From an uncultured Candidatus Actinomarina sp. (GTDB taxonomy: Bacteria > Actinomycetota > Acidimicrobiia > Actinomarinales > Actinomarinaceae): DNA of 64,000 nt. The notes beneath the pieces were generated by a model, which was given only the letters and a program-made list of their open reading frames with translations, had not been told where the DNA came from and made no database searches. Where the stretch lies: the NCBI GenBank assembly GCA_902634185.1, contig CACPJC010000003.1:32369-96368 (forward strand), given 5' to 3'. Below, piece by piece: positions 35,051 to 56,350 of the stretch (position 1 is the stretch's first letter; each line of letters begins with the position of its first letter). The position numbers were made by a program, and so were the translations under genes.

Positions 35051-35845
35051 TTAAGCTGAACAAATATTGATGTAATCGGTTAAATACTCTTGTTCACTTG
35101 AATCTAATTCACCTGCTGTTCTGTAGTGATTGTATGCACCACCGTAATAACGCACAAGTGCATCAACTAAATATTCTTCCCCTCCAAAAAAGTCTCGTGC
35201 ATCTTGACGATATAACGTTGTTGAATTTTTTGGACAGTTCCTAGTTAAATATGTAAATGCATGAAGTGATTCATGAAGTAAAACATCATAAGAAACTGCA
35301 GCTGAAAAAGCTCTATCCGATATCCAAATAGAAAGTTTCCATTCTGCATTTTTGGTTCCATCTGAGCTTGTTCCGCTTGGATCCCATACTCCATAAGGAC
35401 ACCTCCCAACAAGTGAAGCCCCATATTGATGACAACCATTAATAACACTTATATTGTTTGTTTCGATTATTTGTAACAGTAATGGAGGTAATTGTTTGAC
35501 TAGTTCACCCAAAGTAGTTTGATTTGTGCCTTCGAATCCTGCGTATTCTGCAAATGGACCTGTGTAAACCGTTGTGGTTGTGGTTGAAGTGGTTGTTGTT
35601 GAAGTTGTAGATGTTGTGGTTGAAGTGGTTGTTGTTGAAGGTGGAACAGTTGTTGTTGAAGGTGGAACAGTGGTTGTAGTTGAAGATGTAGTAGTCGTTG
35701 GCTCAAGAGTTGTTGTAGTAGTATCAATGACTTGAATTTCTTCTTGTTCAAGTACAATTGTCTCTTCTTCTTGATTAAAGTTTATTACAACTAAAGAAAC
35801 AATTAATAACAGAAAAATAAATGAGTTTATATATCTGTTGTTCAT
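35051..35845 (-). CDS. Secreted protein: signal/anchor, a Thr/Pro-rich linker of about 60 aa, and a C-terminal domain with an HExxH motif (putative zinc metallopeptidase)
   Basis: N-terminal hydrophobic helix, TTTTSSTTTTVPPSTTTVPPSTTTTSTTTSTT linker, then LLHESLHAF in a Cys-containing domain. Confidence 0.6.
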   Translation of the reverse strand: MNNRYINSFIFLLLIVSLVVINFNQEEETIVLEQEEIQVIDTTTTTLEPTTTTSSTTTTVPPSTTTVPPSTTTTSTTTSTTSTTTTSTTTTTVYTGPFAEYAGFEGTNQTTLGELVKQLPPLLLQIIETNNISVINGCHQYGASLVGRCPYGVWDPSGTSSDGTKNAEWKLSIWISDRAFSAAVSYDVLLHESLHAFTYLTRNCPKNSTTLYRQDARDFFGGEEYLVDALVRYYGGAYNHYRTAGELDSSEQEYLTDYINICSA

Positions 35846-37920: not shown

Positions 37921-39003
37921 TTAATTACCACTTTCTATCCTAGTAAGAATCCCTGAAACAACGAGTCTTTGCCTAGCAGAGTACCTAGGGTGACAAGTTG
38001 TCAATGTCAGCCTGTCATCACCTCGATTAAAAAGAACATAATCTCCTGTGTTAGCATCAACCACTTCTATATCATCCACAATGTAATGGTATTTATTTGA
38101 CCCATATGTTAAATAAATCTCATCTCCAATTTCGACCAAATCTAATCTACTGAAAGGGGCACCATATGTTGTCCTATGGCCTGCAATTCCAACATTTCCA
38201 CCTGAACCCGGTAGTTTTGTCCCAAGATAGTGTCCTGGACCAAATTGCAAATTAAGTTCATCAGTACCTGAAACAACATATTGATTTACGTTTATACCTG
38301 GAATTTCAAGAAGACCGAATATTTCAGGTTGAAATTCATCAATCTTTGCACTTTGGTCAATGATGGTAAAATCTTGCAAAGTTTCAAAAACAGGAATGTC
38401 ACTTTGGAATAAGCGAAGAGGATTTGAAAAAATTGTAGGAGGATCTACGTCCTTTATTTCCTCACCTAGATAGATTTGTTCAAGATAAGCTTGAGCATTG
38501 TCTTGTTGAACATTTGATAAAAACATTTGTTGTGTTGCATAAATACCAAAACCCATACCTGTAATTATCGATAAAACAGCAAATCCAAGAGCAGGTCGTT
38601 TTAATTTTTTTCTATCAAAAAATTTTCTGTTAATTTTTTTTGTGTCTTTTTTTCGAGAAAATACCTTTTTCTCCGCGATTTTTGCATCGAGCTCATTACC
38701 AGAATATATAATTTGAAAGTTATTTGAAATTAGACCCAAACGCTCTTCAAGAATTTCTTTTGTAAGTTCTGTATTTTCTTCCTCGCAAATAGATTTTATG
38801 TTTTCAATTGCGACTAGAGTATATTGAAGCTCACTATCAAGTGCTTGTATCTCTGATTGATAAGTTGTAAAACTCTTTGCATATGGAGCAAATTTATTTA
38901 TATCAATACTAATTTCTACTTTTTCTTGTATTAGTTTCTCAATTTTTGTTTTTAATTTGAAGGCATGCTTATAAATATCCTCTAGCGAAATTTCACTTTC
39001 CAT
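37921..39003 (-). CDS. Class E sortase module (possible independent gene starting at the ATG at 39003..39001)
   Basis: About 130-aa cytoplasmic charged region, a TM helix (ALGFAVLSIITGMGFGIYA), then a catalytic domain with GHRTTYGAPF (His), LTLTTCHP (TLxTC Cys) and a downstream Arg. These are sortase hallmarks. A long N-terminal extension before the TM is typical of class E enzymes. Confidence 0.7.
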   Translation of the reverse strand: MESEISLEDIYKHAFKLKTKIEKLIQEKVEISIDINKFAPYAKSFTTYQSEIQALDSELQYTLVAIENIKSICEEENTELTKEILEERLGLISNNFQIIYSGNELDAKIAEKKVFSRKKDTKKINRKFFDRKKLKRPALGFAVLSIITGMGFGIYATQQMFLSNVQQDNAQAYLEQIYLGEEIKDVDPPTIFSNPLRLFQSDIPVFETLQDFTIIDQSAKIDEFQPEIFGLLEIPGINVNQYVVSGTDELNLQFGPGHYLGTKLPGSGGNVGIAGHRTTYGAPFSRLDLVEIGDEIYLTYGSNKYHYIVDDIEVVDANTGDYVLFNRGDDRLTLTTCHPRYSARQRLVVSGILTRIESGN

Positions 39004-48315: not shown

Positions 48316-49572
48316 TTAGACGTAGACGCGAAGTGTTGAGGTCACTGTTGTGACGGAATCTAGTGCTGATATTTGATCAATAGAATTCTTGATATCTTTC
48401 TCTGGTGCCTCGTGGGTAACTAAAACAAGTTCTGCTTTATCTCCCCTGCCTTCTTGGATAACACTCTCAATACTTACGTTATTTTCACCAAAAGTTCCAG
48501 AGATTTTTGCCAAAACACCAGGTTCATCATTGACGGAAAGCCTTATAAACATGCTTGATACCACATCCTCAAAACTTTTCATTTCGCCTTTAAATTCTCT
48601 TAGTGGATACCAGTTTGTTTGATCACTGCTTAGTTGATGGCAAGCACTTAACACGTCTCCAATAATTGCACTTGCTGTTGGTTCAGCACCTGCGCCTGGT
48701 CCTGAAAACACCAACTGATTTATATTATCTCCTTCAACGACAACAGCATTTAAAGCTCCTCTTATTGCAGCAAGAGGATGTTTCGTATCAATTAAGACAG
48801 GATGAACCCTTGCATTAAAGCCATTCTTATTTTCAATCTGTGCAACTAATTTAATTGTCTTTCCGAGCCTTGCTGCCCATTCAAAATCTTCTTTTGTAAT
48901 GCCAGAAATTCCATCGGTAAAGAGTTCGTCTGCACTTGGTGATACTCCAAAACAAAGAAGCGATAAAATTACTGCTTTGTATTTTGCATCTATTCCTTCA
49001 ACATCATTTGTTGGATCAGGTTCTGCATATCCTAGTTCCTGTGCAGTCGATAGTGCATCTTCGTAGGAACTTCCCTCTTCCATAGCAGTCAGCATATAGT
49101 TGGTTGTTCCGTTTATGATCCCGAGTACCTTTGACAACTCTTCGCCTCTAAGACTTTCTATGAGTGGTTTAAGTACAGGTATACCTGCAGCGACTGCTGC
49201 CTCAAAATATAAACAAGCATTATTTTCTTTTGCAGTATTAATTAGATCAGATCCAGAATCGGCAATGATATCTTTATTTGCTGTTATTACTGCTTTACCA
49301 TTTTGCAAGATTGCCTTTATGTACTCTTTACCGGGATCAATACCTCCAAGAACTTCTATAACAAGATCAATTGAATCATCATTTAAAATGTCATCAAAAT
49401 TGTCAGTGAGAATATCGTCTGGTATTTCTCTTTTTTTACTTTTATCTTTTACTAAAACTCTTTTTACATTTAATCCAACTATTCCTTTATCTAAGTTCAT
49501 GAGGCGTGAGATAACAGCTGAACCAATATTGCCAGCACCCATAACAGCTACATTAAATGTTTTATTTTCCAT
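48316..49572 (-). CDS. hom: Homoserine dehydrogenase (with C-terminal ACT domain)
   Basis: NAD-binding VAVMGAGNIGSAV and the Hom catalytic domain. 418 aa. Confidence 0.85.
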   Translation of the reverse strand: MENKTFNVAVMGAGNIGSAVISRLMNLDKGIVGLNVKRVLVKDKSKKREIPDDILTDNFDDILNDDSIDLVIEVLGGIDPGKEYIKAILQNGKAVITANKDIIADSGSDLINTAKENNACLYFEAAVAAGIPVLKPLIESLRGEELSKVLGIINGTTNYMLTAMEEGSSYEDALSTAQELGYAEPDPTNDVEGIDAKYKAVILSLLCFGVSPSADELFTDGISGITKEDFEWAARLGKTIKLVAQIENKNGFNARVHPVLIDTKHPLAAIRGALNAVVVEGDNINQLVFSGPGAGAEPTASAIIGDVLSACHQLSSDQTNWYPLREFKGEMKSFEDVVSSMFIRLSVNDEPGVLAKISGTFGENNVSIESVIQEGRGDKAELVLVTHEAPEKDIKNSIDQISALDSVTTVTSTLRVYV

Positions 49573-49615
49573 ATTTAGTAAGGATAAATGTTATTCAGAT
49601 TGAAACAACAGTTTT

Positions 49616-52180
49616 TTATTCATCACCATCAGCGATTCCATCTGTGTCAGCATCTGAGCTTGCATTTGGGTCTAAAGGAAATGCATCTAAAGAGTCTAAT
49701 ACCCCATCACCATCATCATCTGTGTCTGATGAATTATCGATACCGTCTCCATCTGTATCAACAGCAGTTAGTTTCCATCTTCTCATAAATTCATCTTCAA
49801 ACATTACTATTCCTACTTCAGGGTTCACCCAAAAATTTAGTATCTGTAAAGACCGGTGAAATGAACTTGATGCACCAATACTAACTTGTGAATGAGTAAT
49901 TTTGTATGCATCGTATGCACCGTGAGGTGTAACAACTAACTCTTGATTTACATAATTTGTAAAATTCCAAGTATCGTAATAAGTAGTGCCAAAAGTGGAT
50001 GTATTTTCATATCTTGAAGAACAATCTGATTCATTATATTCACCTGTCTTCATGTAATGGTCAATGAATAGACAAGGATTTTGAAATTCTCTTTCAATAG
50101 AGCCGTCACTTGGTGTTGAACCGGCAAATATCTTTTCCCAACCAACAGTCTTTATAAAGTAATTACCATTGTTTATATAAAATAATATTCCAAATTTATG
50201 GTTAACATCGCCTGTATTAAATGGATTCACATAATTCATGTCACAATTTTGTGTATCACACCAGTAAAAAGTTTCGTATGTAGTTCCACCATCCTCAATA
50301 TCTGAGCCTTTTTCGACATACATTGTTTTTGTTGCAGAAGTAGTTTCAGAAATTGATTCTGTAAAGCTATATGACGATGAACCACCATCAATTAATGGAA
50401 AATATGCTTTTGATTTTATTGAATAACTTCCGATGTCAACGCCATAATTTGTAGATGGCCCAAATCTGTCATATTCATGTGCATATTCTTGCATTACTCT
50501 CGAAGCATCAGATTGATCATTTACTCCAGCACTTTGTGTGCCTTGTGTTCCATCATTTTGATAGTGGAAAGGAATGCCAAGATCATTTACTTCTGGAAAT
50601 CCAGCACATGTTAAATCTGGATTTGAATAAATTCCACAAAAAGCCATTCCATACCCTACGAGAGTTGAGAAAGGTTGGTCGCCTGTCTGATTATAAGCAT
50701 GTGCATAATCGGTAATTCCATCTCCTGTTGATCCAGGATTTGAACTTTGCTCTCTTGAATGTGCTATCCCCAAAGCATGTCCTAACTCATGTGGAAAGAG
50801 CTTGTTATTATATCTGTAATCCAAGCTTGTAACTTTGAAAACATTTCTCCTGTCTTTTGTTGTATCTCTATATAAATATGAAGAACTTCCCTCTCCAGGA
50901 AGGAGTGCACCTACAATATCAGCACCTTTTTTAACTTTAGTTTTGTGGACTTCTTGATCATATTGTAAAAAGTTTAAAATATTGCTACTTACGTCTGAGT
51001 AAGTCACATTCCAAGAATGGATATCCAAAACATTCATTTCCAAGTTAGTAATCTGACTATTCGCAAAAATCTCATTTTGATTTGTCTCTAACTGACCCTG
51101 AGCAAAAGAAAGCAATTCACTGGTAGTATCGTAATCGCTTGGTGCAGATCCAATTGTGTCATTGTGGTAAACAAGTAAAAGATCTATGGAAAATTTTTCT
51201 GATATATCTGTCACGTTAACTGTAAAATTTTTGCAAGATATTCCCAAACTGTCAGTCACATTTGCAGTTGCTGAATAACTTGTCTTTTGCTCATAGTCAG
51301 CATTTGTATTTAAAGTTATTACTCCGTTTGAATCAACCGACATAAGTCTTGAATCACTTCCAGTAATTGAGTAAGACAATGTGCCTGATCCCGTTGCTGA
51401 AATGGTATCAATAGATTTTTGATTTTCATTTATTGTTATTGGAGTAGTTAAATTAGTAATTGTTGGACCATTGCTACAGCTATCCTCAGAAGAATTTCCT
51501 GATCCAGTTCCACCAGTTCCACCAGTTCCAGGTGTTATTCCTGGGATGGGTTTTTCTATAAAATCAAAACCACTATTTTTTAATTGTTTATGTTCATCGC
51601 AGTCTCTATATGTAGTCCATTCACCTGCTGCATTCCATAAAGTTCCAACTTCTCCATGCCACATCTTTCCACCATCATCACAATCAATTTTCTCACTTAC
51701 TGTTTCCGTGATAATTTCATCAACCTCTGTGATAACTTCATCGACCTCTAAGAGATTTTGTTTTATTGGTCTATTTTCAAAAAAAGTACATTCTTTGTAA
51801 GCTAAATAGTCACCGCAATCTATAAATATAGCTTTGACCTCCATCTCACAATTGTTATAAGTTGTCATAGCTTTATGTGTTGAAGGTCCAATAATGCCAT
51901 CAACTCTAATCCCAATAAATCTTTGAAAATTTTTGATTGCTAGCCTAAGACTTTTTGTCATATAAGCTTCAATTTTTCCAGTGAAAAAACCTTCTTCATT
52001 CAGAAAATCATATAAATTACTAACTTCAAGAAAATTTACGTTACCGTAATTATTTTCAACACATTCCTGAGTAGTTTCATTAAAGACTGATTCAGTTACT
52101 TCGATTTGGGTTGGAAACATTAGAGTTGTAAAAATAATCAAAAATACAAAAATAAAACAAGTAAAAATTCTCCAACCCAT
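49616..52180 (-). CDS. Secreted/anchored multidomain metzincin with a peptidoglycan-binding domain, a cadherin-like domain and TSP3-like Ca-binding repeats
   Basis: N-terminal TM/signal, PG_binding_1-like LRLAIKNFQRFIGIRVDGIIGPSTHKAM, HELGHALGIAHS (HExxHxxGxxH), and C-terminal DTDGDGIDNSSDTDDDGDGVLDSLDAFPLDPNASSDADTDGIADGDE. Confidence 0.75.
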   Translation of the reverse strand: MGWRIFTCFIFVFLIIFTTLMFPTQIEVTESVFNETTQECVENNYGNVNFLEVSNLYDFLNEEGFFTGKIEAYMTKSLRLAIKNFQRFIGIRVDGIIGPSTHKAMTTYNNCEMEVKAIFIDCGDYLAYKECTFFENRPIKQNLLEVDEVITEVDEIITETVSEKIDCDDGGKMWHGEVGTLWNAAGEWTTYRDCDEHKQLKNSGFDFIEKPIPGITPGTGGTGGTGSGNSSEDSCSNGPTITNLTTPITINENQKSIDTISATGSGTLSYSITGSDSRLMSVDSNGVITLNTNADYEQKTSYSATANVTDSLGISCKNFTVNVTDISEKFSIDLLLVYHNDTIGSAPSDYDTTSELLSFAQGQLETNQNEIFANSQITNLEMNVLDIHSWNVTYSDVSSNILNFLQYDQEVHKTKVKKGADIVGALLPGEGSSSYLYRDTTKDRRNVFKVTSLDYRYNNKLFPHELGHALGIAHSREQSSNPGSTGDGITDYAHAYNQTGDQPFSTLVGYGMAFCGIYSNPDLTCAGFPEVNDLGIPFHYQNDGTQGTQSAGVNDQSDASRVMQEYAHEYDRFGPSTNYGVDIGSYSIKSKAYFPLIDGGSSSYSFTESISETTSATKTMYVEKGSDIEDGGTTYETFYWCDTQNCDMNYVNPFNTGDVNHKFGILFYINNGNYFIKTVGWEKIFAGSTPSDGSIEREFQNPCLFIDHYMKTGEYNESDCSSRYENTSTFGTTYYDTWNFTNYVNQELVVTPHGAYDAYKITHSQVSIGASSSFHRSLQILNFWVNPEVGIVMFEDEFMRRWKLTAVDTDGDGIDNSSDTDDDGDGVLDSLDAFPLDPNASSDADTDGIADGDE

Positions 52181-52222
52181 AGAGAAAAATTCTAAGTTAT
52201 AAAATTTTCTATTTCAAATAAT

Positions 52223-52688: not shown

Positions 52689-53327
52689 TTAAAGTTTATC
52701 ACCAATATCAGTGACCACACCATAAACTCCTGTATTTAAAATATTATCTATTTCATCTTTATCATTAACTGTCCACACAACACATTTATCTTTTGGTAGG
52801 TCAAACTTTCTAGAATGAAAAATATCTTTCTGGATCATAAACATTAAATTATCATCTAAATTCGAAATAGATTTGCTTTCGAATAATTGATTTTCTTCAT
52901 CAATCAAAATACCATATCTTGAATTAAATTTTTCTCTGTTGCTTAAAATTGTTCCCCAATCAAATGAAGAAACAATATCATCAGGATTTGTTAACTCAAT
53001 AATTTTTTCTACAAAGATGGTGTTTAGAGTTTCTTGTTTATTGTTTACTTTTAATTCAAAATTTACATCTCCCAATATTTGATCTCTAGATGTTAAATGA
53101 TTATCACTTAGGTCAGTACTTTTAATGTCTGATATCTCTTGTAATGACAAATCTTCAATTTCTTGATTATTAATTGTCGAATCATGAAAAAGAATTAACT
53201 CTTCATCTTTTGTTATCCGTACATCTGTTTCAACGAAATCACATATTTCAAGGGCTTTATTGAGACTCAAAAAGGTGTTTTCAGGGTATAAATTGGGTAA
53301 ACCTCTATGACCAAAAATTTTTTTCAA
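52689..53327 (-). CDS. Glycerophosphodiester phosphodiesterase family protein
   Basis: IFGHRGLPNLYPENT...ETDVRITKDEELILFHD GDPD motifs. Confidence 0.75.
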   Translation of the reverse strand: MKKIFGHRGLPNLYPENTFLSLNKALEICDFVETDVRITKDEELILFHDSTINNQEIEDLSLQEISDIKSTDLSDNHLTSRDQILGDVNFELKVNNKQETLNTIFVEKIIELTNPDDIVSSFDWGTILSNREKFNSRYGILIDEENQLFESKSISNLDDNLMFMIQKDIFHSRKFDLPKDKCVVWTVNDKDEIDNILNTGVYGVVTDIGDKL

Positions 53328-56275: not shown

Positions 56276-56350
56276 TGGCTGGGGGAGAAGGACTCGAACC
56301 CTCAACGTTGGGACCAAAACCCAATGTGTTGCCAATTACACCATCCCCCA
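56276..56350 (-). tRNA. tRNA-Gln (anticodon UUG)
   Basis: Hand-folded. A 7-bp acceptor stem (UGGGGGA/UCCCCCA), a GTGT/ACAC D stem, the anticodon loop UUUUGGU, the T arm GGTTCGAGTCC, and an encoded CCA. Confidence 0.8.

Follow-up and report, generated by a model that had tools for sequence, protein, structure and literature searches.

A candidate wall-docked reprolysin-like metzincin at a recombining single-gene locus of Candidatus Actinomarina

Results

The protease gene and its setting

We analysed a stretch of 64,000 nucleotides (nt) from an uncultured Candidatus Actinomarina sp. (assembly GCA_902634185.1, contig CACPJC010000003.1), hereafter the window, and in it a gene for a zinc protease. 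The gene is a minus-strand open reading frame (ORF) that fills positions 49616–52180 exactly, without interruption, from an ATG start, and encodes 854 amino acids (aa) plus the stop codon. The window has a G+C content of ~35% and also encodes WhiB and the products of the core genes glmU, prs, yqeY, hom and thrC. The order glmU-prs-whiB-GDPD-yqeY-protease-hom-thrC-(giant ORF) is kept in other Actinomarinales contigs, and the spacers flanking the protease gene are 42–43 nt each. The protein has 133 homologues in the database, mostly of full length (~840–880 aa) and nearly always from Candidatus Actinomarina/OCS155; the few that are named bear the sole label 'peptidoglycan-binding protein'. Near-identical copies of the locus come from single-cell genomes labelled 'uncultured Candidatus Actinomarina sp.'. 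Judging from the sequence, the product is likely to be an extracellular zinc endopeptidase of Candidatus Actinomarina, tethered to the envelope and docked in the wall, that exists as recombining allele classes. Its features are collected in Table 1.

Table 1. Positions of the features of the protease and its locus (window coordinates, except in the last row).
Feature	Position (nt)	Residues	Strand	Remarks
Signal-anchor or atypical signal peptide	52109–52180	1–24	minus	Sole hydrophobic segment, MGWRIFTCFIFVFLIIFTTLMFPT
PG_binding_1 module	51788–52063	40–131	minus	Three-helix part at 52–105, extended by a beta-hairpin region; C40, C111, C122 and C131 invariant
Small beta-beta-beta-alpha module	51560–51688	165–207	minus	C167/C194; AlphaFold2 secondary structure, pLDDT ~75
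Pro/Gly/Thr/Ser low-complexity linker	51476–51559	208–235	minus	From sequence; pLDDT <50
Cadherin-like Ig domain	51197–51475	236–328	minus	Joins the first catalytic strand directly via D325-I-S-E328
Catalytic domain	50465–51196	329–572	minus	Divergent bacterial reprolysin-like (adamalysin-fold, Mep72/CpaA-type) metzincin, by sequence
Zinc motif	50756–50791	464–475	minus	HELGHALGIAHS; ligands H464, H468 and H474; general base E465; family residue S475
Met-turn position	50651–50665	506–510	minus	T-L-V-G-Y; aligned with GTIM(S/A)Y of Mep72-type relatives
All-beta C-terminal domain	49766–50464	573–805	minus	C641, C646, C703 and C720 invariant
Acidic tail	49619–49765	806–854	minus	Three DxDxDGxxDxxD loops and DAFPLDP
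Promoter-like TTGAAA-17-TAGAAT	52189–52217		minus	Consensus scan; within the 42-nt yqeY-protease spacer, ends 9 nt before the ATG
Accessory HExxH protein	L017 5576–6367; L001 9086–9901; L002 12310–13218

The catalytic domain

An earlier note on this DNA, made from the letters and a list of ORFs, had described a matrixin-like metzincin. The broader half of that description, a metzincin-type multidomain zinc peptidase, is borne out: the domain has a metzincin catalytic fold, and the extended zinc motif HExxHxxGxxH is present as HELGHALGIAH at residues 464–474. H464, E465, H468 and H474 are invariant in all 121 family sequences. Because of this invariance and the 133 homologues, the ORF lies far beyond chance. 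Two further positions vary. Residue 471 is Gly in 87 sequences and Asn in 34 (Gly in 202 of 204 remote relatives), and at residue 475 there are 48 sequences with Ser and 73 with Ala.

The sequence comparisons place the catalytic domain as a divergent bacterial reprolysin-like metzincin of the Mep72, CpaA and 'peptidyl-Asp metalloendopeptidase' type, not as a matrixin. The NCBIfam Mep72 model (NF052434) matches residues 332–527 over profile positions 2–202 with an E value of 1.6e-14 and 53.4 bits. This falls short of the equivalog cut-off of 645 bits, so the protease is not an orthologue of Mep72, and it has no carbohydrate-binding modules (CBMs). Pfam Reprolysin_3 is barely over its threshold (22.9 against 22.4 bits), Reprolysin_4 just under (21.9 against 22) and Reprolysin_5 well under (18 against 27); reprolysin-type Pfam matches at E ≤0.01 occur in 13–15 of 29 family members. 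Pfam Peptidase_M10, the matrixin model, reaches 15.5 bits against a gathering threshold of 24 and matches residues 461–480 only.

When the catalytic domain by itself was used in a word-indexed profile search, nothing but fragments from within the family came back, and the remote relatives needed an exhaustive HMMER profile search of 1.84 billion representatives. This gave 5177 relatives, 420 of them at E ≤1e-10, matched over the catalytic half only; the remote relatives were also recovered after the profile search had been seeded with them. All ten that we sampled are clear Pfam Reprolysin_3/4/5 proteins, which tells against the 'matrixin-like' label, and their accessory modules are varied (Ig, CBM_4_9, TSP_3, Por_Secre_tail, I36). 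One of these ten, P0153 from Agarilytica, scores 668 bits as a true Mep72 equivalog and matches the family profile at E ~1e-15. Family and relatives have in common the extended signature HExGHxxGxxH(S/D)R..Q / YxYGY / GTIM(S/A)Y / FSNPD..C..CG. When the family profile is compared with the PDB, snake-venom adamalysins lead, aligned over ~140 positions, whereas MMP (matrix metalloproteinase) structures align only over the 20–28 residues of the zinc motif.

The source databases name the relatives 'M12 family metallo-peptidase', 'peptidyl-Asp metalloendopeptidase' or 'zinc-dependent metalloprotease [P. aeruginosa]'. We take the group of Mep72, 'peptidyl-Asp metalloendopeptidase' and Reprolysin_3-4-5 proteins to be MEROPS family M72. 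Solely these names of remote relatives hint that cleavage might occur N-terminal to Asp or cysteic acid (EC 3.4.24.33).

The Met-turn

The earlier note had proposed looking for a Met-turn. A turn of the form T-x-Phi-x-Y, where Phi is the position of the methionine, is conserved, but it is non-canonical: in the alignment the methionine is replaced by Val508 in the window protease. Across the family residue 508 is Met in 66 sequences, Leu in 48 and Val in 6, and 189 of 204 remote relatives have Met in the corresponding column; T506 and Y510 do not vary within the family. Thus the family appears to keep its catalytic machinery yet to relax two residues normally taken as hallmarks of metzincins.

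Engineered Met-turn substitutions in MMPs, serralysins and ulilysin have for the most part reduced stability without abolishing activity. Since the cost of such substitutions is mostly one of stability, we infer that the family proteins are active. The H/E/H/H residues and Y510 are invariant in 120–121 sequences despite ~21% identity between allele classes. Val508 had prompted us to consider a pseudoenzyme, and we rejected this candidate because none of the 121 sequences departs from the four catalytic residues or from Y510.

Membrane anchor, peptidoglycan-binding module and spacer domains

The hydrophobic segment at the N-terminus is the only one in the protein: in a Kyte-Doolittle scan hydrophobic windows start only at residues 1–11, and AlphaFold2 predicts a helix at residues 2–21. 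Residues 1–24 contain neither an AxA-type cleavage site nor a lipobox. The aligned N-termini of the homologues are alike in hydrophobicity, and small residues at –3/–1 are absent in all of them. The segment is probably an uncleaved signal-anchor, with its N-terminus inside and the remainder of the protein outside. The protease contains 15 cysteine residues, and the even counts of invariant cysteines per extracellular module suggest disulphide bonds.

The PG_binding_1 domain at the N-terminus, recognised in the earlier note, is confirmed by Pfam (PF01471, residues 52–105, profile positions 4–57 of 57, E 3e-9, 37.3 bits against a gathering threshold of 23), and it is above threshold in all 29 family members. 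AlphaFold2 models the module with a predicted local distance difference test (pLDDT) score of 71–85. Its nearest sequence matches are the peptidoglycan-binding domains of SleB and L,D-transpeptidases, not MMP prodomains; it matches the N-terminal region of SleB in NCBIfam at E 2e-7 and SleB in the PDB (6tci) at E 8e-4. The wall-anchored location that the note had put forward is plausible.

Between the end of the PG_binding_1 match (residue 105) and the start of the catalytic domain (residue 329) lie 224 residues, which contain the cadherin-like domain and, ahead of it, a small module and the low-complexity linker. The small module is present in some alleles, and others have an unrelated Cys-containing segment at this place in the alignment; Pfam has no match for it, nor for the C-terminal barrel described below. 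The cadherin-like domain, which was also part of the earlier description, is a candidate assignment supported by its fold.

These distances matter for one reading of the protein, according to which it would be an MMP-like (matrixin, M10A) zymogen whose peptidoglycan-binding-like prodomain latches the catalytic zinc; the earlier note had seen a mirror of MMP architecture. Three observations are in its favour: HELGHALGIAHS ends in His-Ser, as in MMPs, a PG_binding_1-family domain lies N-terminal of the catalytic domain, and weak Peptidase_M10 matches occur in 5 of 29 family members. However, the M10 similarity is confined to the 20–28 residues of the zinc motif, and His-Ser is also the commonest ending among Mep72-type relatives (121 of 204). 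The PRCGxPD motif of the cysteine switch is absent, and the four cysteines around the peptidoglycan-binding module are even in number, invariant and compatible with disulphides. Furthermore, that module is of the SleB/L,D-transpeptidase type and is not adjacent to the catalytic domain, from which it is separated by two domains as well as by the linker. The turn is T-x-Phi-x-Y, not ALMYP, no hemopexin domain is present, and structural searches do not rank MMPs. The zymogen reading is close to refuted, and with it the parallel to MMP architecture.

C-terminal barrel and acidic tail

Between the catalytic domain and the tail, residues 573–805 form what looks like an open beta-barrel of the YmcC/DUF3108 kind. 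Its matches are lipoprotein or lipid-carrier-type barrels (YmcC, LolA, VioE), not lectins. The protein ends in three DxDxDG loops, at residues 808–819, 819–832 and 843–854 in a motif scan, in agreement with the repeats seen in the earlier note. This acidic tail is the most conserved part of the protease, with 24 of 49 positions invariant, and the same tail is carried by two other marine proteins, P0135 and P0137. The note had called it a thrombospondin-type-3 tail. The three calcium-loop motifs fit that name, but Pfam TSP_3 (PF02412) gives an E value of 4.7 on the whole protein and 19.5 bits against a gathering threshold of 25 on the isolated tail, none of 29 family members matches at E ≤0.01, and the cysteines typical of TSP3 repeats are absent from the tail. 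We therefore describe the tail as thrombospondin-type-3-like and presumably Ca2+-binding.

The nature of the C-terminal half bears on the question of whether the enzyme could be specific for glycoproteins, that is, an O-glycoprotease or mucinase similar to CpaA or StcE, acting on glycosylated algal or particle proteins with the barrel and tail binding glycans. Nine of 29 family members have weak matches to Pfam Peptidase_M66 (StcE), and the relatives are habitually fused to carbohydrate-binding modules. The M66 matches, however, are short and near threshold, and the likeness to glycoproteases is limited to the generic catalytic fold. CpaA of Acinetobacter, a glycan-specific adamalysin-like protease (PDB 6o38), has only ~15% identity to the protease. 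It contains four repeats that bind glycans and has its own chaperone, CpaB; for the protease we detected neither such repeats nor such a chaperone. With a barrel resembling YmcC, LolA and VioE rather than a lectin, we consider glycoprotein specificity unlikely.

Allele classes and recombination

A comparison of the window with a related locus, L001 (the related loci are numbered L001–L022), shows how sharply the protease gene stands out from its neighbours. At the amino acid level the flanking genes are 92.8% (glmU), 98.2% (prs), 90.5% (yqeY), 94.0% (hom) and 98.0% (thrC) identical, and the proteases are 42.6% identical. By domain, identity is 60% in the peptidoglycan-binding part, 55% in the cadherin-like domain, 21% in the catalytic domain, 33% in the C-terminal barrel and 84% in the acidic tail. 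In the DNA, a block of 86% identity stops exactly at the start codon (52180) and a block of 91% identity restarts at 49778, where the tail begins. The start codon and the conserved tail thus serve as the anchors of recombination.

Three allele classes can be told apart by the zinc motif: class A has HELGHALG or HEWGHS, class B has HELGHSLGL.HA and class C has HELGHNLNGNHS. All three occur in loci whose hom and thrC products are at least 90% and at least 95% identical to those of the window (aa): L006 has class A, L017 and L021 class B, and L001 and L020 class C. All three also recur in genomes with flanks of ~70–80% identity. Conversely, L006 and L007 carry the window allele at 99.4–99.5% nt identity, with hom at 88% and thrC at 95.6% or 80.1%. 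Because diverged alleles sit in near-identical flanks and near-identical alleles in diverged flanks, the pattern bears the mark of old allele lineages that have been moved by homologous recombination. The locus is one of single-gene replacement, in which at least three ancient classes of protease allele are swapped by homologous recombination.

Such a pattern is what would be expected for an exposed surface protein under frequency-dependent selection, through recognition by phages or grazers or through specialisation on substrates. We regard it as quite possible, if not quite an even bet, that the alleles persist across genera as a trans-specific balanced polymorphism of an exposed enzyme in the yqeY-hom slot, driven by recognition by phages or grazers or by partitioning of substrate niches.

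The variation also bears on a possible role in the cell's own wall. A peptidoglycan-remodelling endopeptidase (autolysin) might reach cross-links through PG_binding_1, a domain typical of wall hydrolases such as SleB and the L,D-transpeptidases, and a gene with housekeeping genes as neighbours that occurs throughout the order would suit such a task. A conserved wall substrate, however, would not predict 21% identity between the catalytic domains of near-identical strains, and the homologous module of P0135 and P0137 is lipid-anchored and has no peptidoglycan-binding domain. Hydrolysis of peptidoglycan is not known for any metzincin or reprolysin-like enzyme. An autolysin is very improbable.

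In the genome study of the Actinomarinales only one flexible island, the glycotype island, was found to be preserved across the order (PMC7771536). The protease locus resembles replacement-type flexible genomic islands such as this fGI1 in its fixed location, divergent content and recombination in the flanks (PMC7771536). It differs from fGI1 in size, being one gene, in some loci joined by a small accessory gene, where fGI1 is a cluster of 43–79 kb, in encoding a protease rather than glycosylation enzymes, and in having one of its recombination anchors inside the gene, in the conserved tail.

Several side observations concern the extent of the variable zone. Two genes upstream of the protease gene, the GDPD-family gene at 52689–53327 (minus strand) is 69.8% identical to its counterpart in L001 (aa), against 90–98% for its neighbours, and the variable zone may extend beyond the protease. 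P0091, a class B-like member without the small CDDGG module, is encoded at L005 6001–8586 (GCA_902588755.1) between inositol-phosphatase and ABC transporter genes; some genomes may carry the protease gene elsewhere or as a second copy. In L002 and L003 the upstream genes prs, GDPD and yqeY are 90–95% identical, and the downstream genes hom and thrC only 68–75%. Either an entire flank was exchanged by recombination, or the metagenome scaffold of L003 is a chimera joined at the protease.

In 9 of the 22 related loci the protease gene is adjoined, upstream or downstream, by a gene for a secreted or lipoprotein-like protein of 263–302 aa with a Thr/Ser-rich linker and a conserved ILLHE(A/S)AHAY sequence (HExxH). 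It is absent beside the window protease, and a paralogue of 39% identity lies at window positions 35051–35845 (minus strand). The accessory protein has no Pfam or NCBIfam match, and PADLOC recognises neither it nor the protease as part of a defence system.

The giant neighbouring protein

The earlier note had placed the protease right next to an adhesin island and had suggested that it might act on the giant protein encoded there. The proximity is approximate: the giant ORF (3003 aa, 37921–46932, minus strand) is separated from the protease gene by hom and thrC (2.6 kb). The giant protein contains Reelin_subrepeat-B, CHB_HEX_C (chitobiase-type) and BNR-like repeats fused in frame to a Pfam Sortase domain at its end (residues 2875–2994, E 1.6e-29); such a fusion of a sortase to a giant surface protein is unusual. 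Between close relatives the giant ORF is a mosaic of shuffled blocks of 65–85% nt identity. We could see no LPxTG-like sorting motif in the protease sequence.

Could the protease be dedicated to processing or shedding this surface protein? The order yqeY-protease-hom-thrC-giant ORF is kept in several Actinomarinales genomes, and both genes are surface-related and variable. Their alleles, however, assort independently: L021 has a different protease class, yet the 5' kilobase of its giant ORF is 97% identical, and L006 has the same protease allele, yet only the first 223 nt of its giant ORF match. Two housekeeping genes intervene, L004 has no giant ORF downstream of thrC as called, and the family member P0091 lies at an unrelated locus. 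As synteny is high throughout the genomes of the order (PMC7771536), conserved order says little. Because the alleles are unlinked and synteny is conserved genome-wide, a dedicated protease-substrate pair is not supported, and we think it distinctly improbable.

Other features of the region

Between a promoter-like element and the ATG of the protease gene lie 9 nt, and no Shine-Dalgarno sequence is found upstream of this ATG. For these two reasons the protease transcript may be leaderless. The second of the region's two best sigma-70-like matches (49733–49761, minus strand) lies within the conserved coding sequence of the acidic tail, just upstream of hom, and could add to the nucleotide conservation of the tail. 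The count of sigma-70-like sites in the region is not above the shuffled expectation, which makes the promoter evidence weak. The sole match in an Rfam scan is a tRNA at 56279–56350, with nothing inside the protease gene. We set aside three plus-strand antisense ORFs (49557–49859, 50455–50715 and 51471–51800) as low-complexity shadows of the protease coding strand.

Among GTDB species representatives the family is found only in Candidatus Actinomarina, OCS155, Acidimicrobiia or 'Actinomycetota', bar three short contigs that are binned as Bacteroidetes or Flavobacteriaceae. Short contigs binned as 'Bacteroidetes', 'Flavobacteriaceae' or 'Chloroflexi' (L011, L014, L016 and P0122) have the protease gene adjoining an Actinomarina-like yqeY (74–80% identity). 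These are probably mis-binned Actinomarinales contigs in public metagenome-assembled genomes.

Discussion

Relation to known metzincins

On the evidence of its domains the protease is a new architectural variant of the bacterial reprolysin-like/Mep72-type metzincins, not a matrixin analogue. Its catalytic domain is homologous to that of Mep72 (PA2783) of Pseudomonas aeruginosa, and the two are alike in combining a secreted protease with a matrix-binding module. The stability of Mep72 is modulated by its two carbohydrate-binding domains (PMC4334185). In the protease the anchor is a transmembrane (TM) segment with PG_binding_1, not CBMs; cadherin-like, YmcC-like and acidic-tail domains are added; the family has relaxed the Met-turn methionine and the motif glycine; and no BamI-like inhibitor is recognised beside the gene. 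Actinomarina is Gram-positive, and therefore export by a type II secretion system does not apply.

Because Mep72-type relatives usually carry carbohydrate-binding or other matrix-binding modules (CBM2, CBM6, CBM_4_9, ricin-B, jacalin), a matrix-binding anchor is the norm for this catalytic domain. The module of the protease would be suited to peptidoglycan, fitting a monoderm; none of the 277 non-family relatives examined has a peptidoglycan-binding module. The unit of cadherin-like domain, catalytic domain, barrel and tail recurs in P0135 and P0137, which match the profile over its entire length (E 1e-41 and 1e-34, respectively) and in which a lipoprotein signal (LFSCGGG) and different domains at the N-terminus take the place of the TM segment and PG_binding_1. 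Compared with the adamalysins and ADAMs (M12B: snake-venom metalloproteinases, ADAM17, ADAMTS), the protease lacks disintegrin and Cys-rich domains, the CIM Met-turn and the HD family residue. It has no match to the Pfam model Reprolysin (PF01421) itself, and no prodomain is recognised.

We found nothing usable in the literature on M72/peptidyl-Asp metalloendopeptidase or on Actinomarina proteases. The genome study of the Actinomarinales is silent on both the protease and the giant protein (PMC7771536).

A working model and its weak points

How might the enzyme operate? The N-terminal hydrophobic helix would export the protease and probably retain it in the membrane, and the disulphide-braced PG_binding_1 module would dock it in the cell's own peptidoglycan. 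The flexible linker and the cadherin-like spacer would then place the catalytic module at or past the wall surface. There, by homology, zinc would be bound by H464, H468 and H474, with E465 activating water and the T506-x-V508-x-Y510 turn lying beneath the active site. The YmcC/DUF3108-like barrel and the DxDxDG tail would most likely serve to bind a substrate or ligand and to stabilise the protein in seawater in a Ca-dependent way.

Candidatus Actinomarinales have auxotrophies for Arg, His and Trp, a preference for exogenous amino acids and many amino acid transporters (PMC7771536). We tentatively suggest that the protease cleaves dissolved or particle-bound protein near the cell, so that peptides and amino acids can be taken up by transporters.

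Several points weigh against this picture. Val508, together with the Asn that replaces the motif Gly in one allele class, may lower stability or activity. AlphaFold2 has low confidence (pLDDT 30–50) at residues 440–546, from the active-site helix through the Met-turn, so that the zinc-site geometry and the Met-turn assignment rest on alignment. The N-terminus may be a cleaved signal peptide instead of a signal-anchor. The allele pattern could alternatively reflect recombination among neutral deep lineages. The nutritional role is drawn from lifestyle only, and a more specific, essential function could be the reason why a streamlined genome keeps a gene of 854 aa at a core position. Even so, we consider an envelope-tethered, wall-docked endopeptidase the likely answer. 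Of its rivals we would place a CpaA-like glycoprotease first, followed by processing of the giant protein, a peptidoglycan hydrolase and, last, an MMP-like zymogen.

Significance

The assignment corrects an attractive but wrong analogy, that of a bacterial 'MMP with a peptidoglycan-binding prodomain'; the true group is large and poorly studied. If the family has been read correctly, its members are natural and presumably active metzincins without the 'defining' methionine of the Met-turn, which is Leu or Val in 45% of them, and one allele class is also without the motif glycine. These natural Met-to-Leu/Val and Gly-to-Asn variants would be useful for the long-standing question of what the Met-turn is for. 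The locus is, moreover, an unusually clean natural experiment, in which one enzyme gene is swapped among otherwise near-identical genomes, and selection on the surface proteins of streamlined plankton becomes directly testable with existing single-amplified genome and metagenome data. Finally, a protease tethered to the cell's own wall is a candidate means by which an amino-acid-auxotrophic marine bacterium, among the smallest of those that live freely, gets its peptides.

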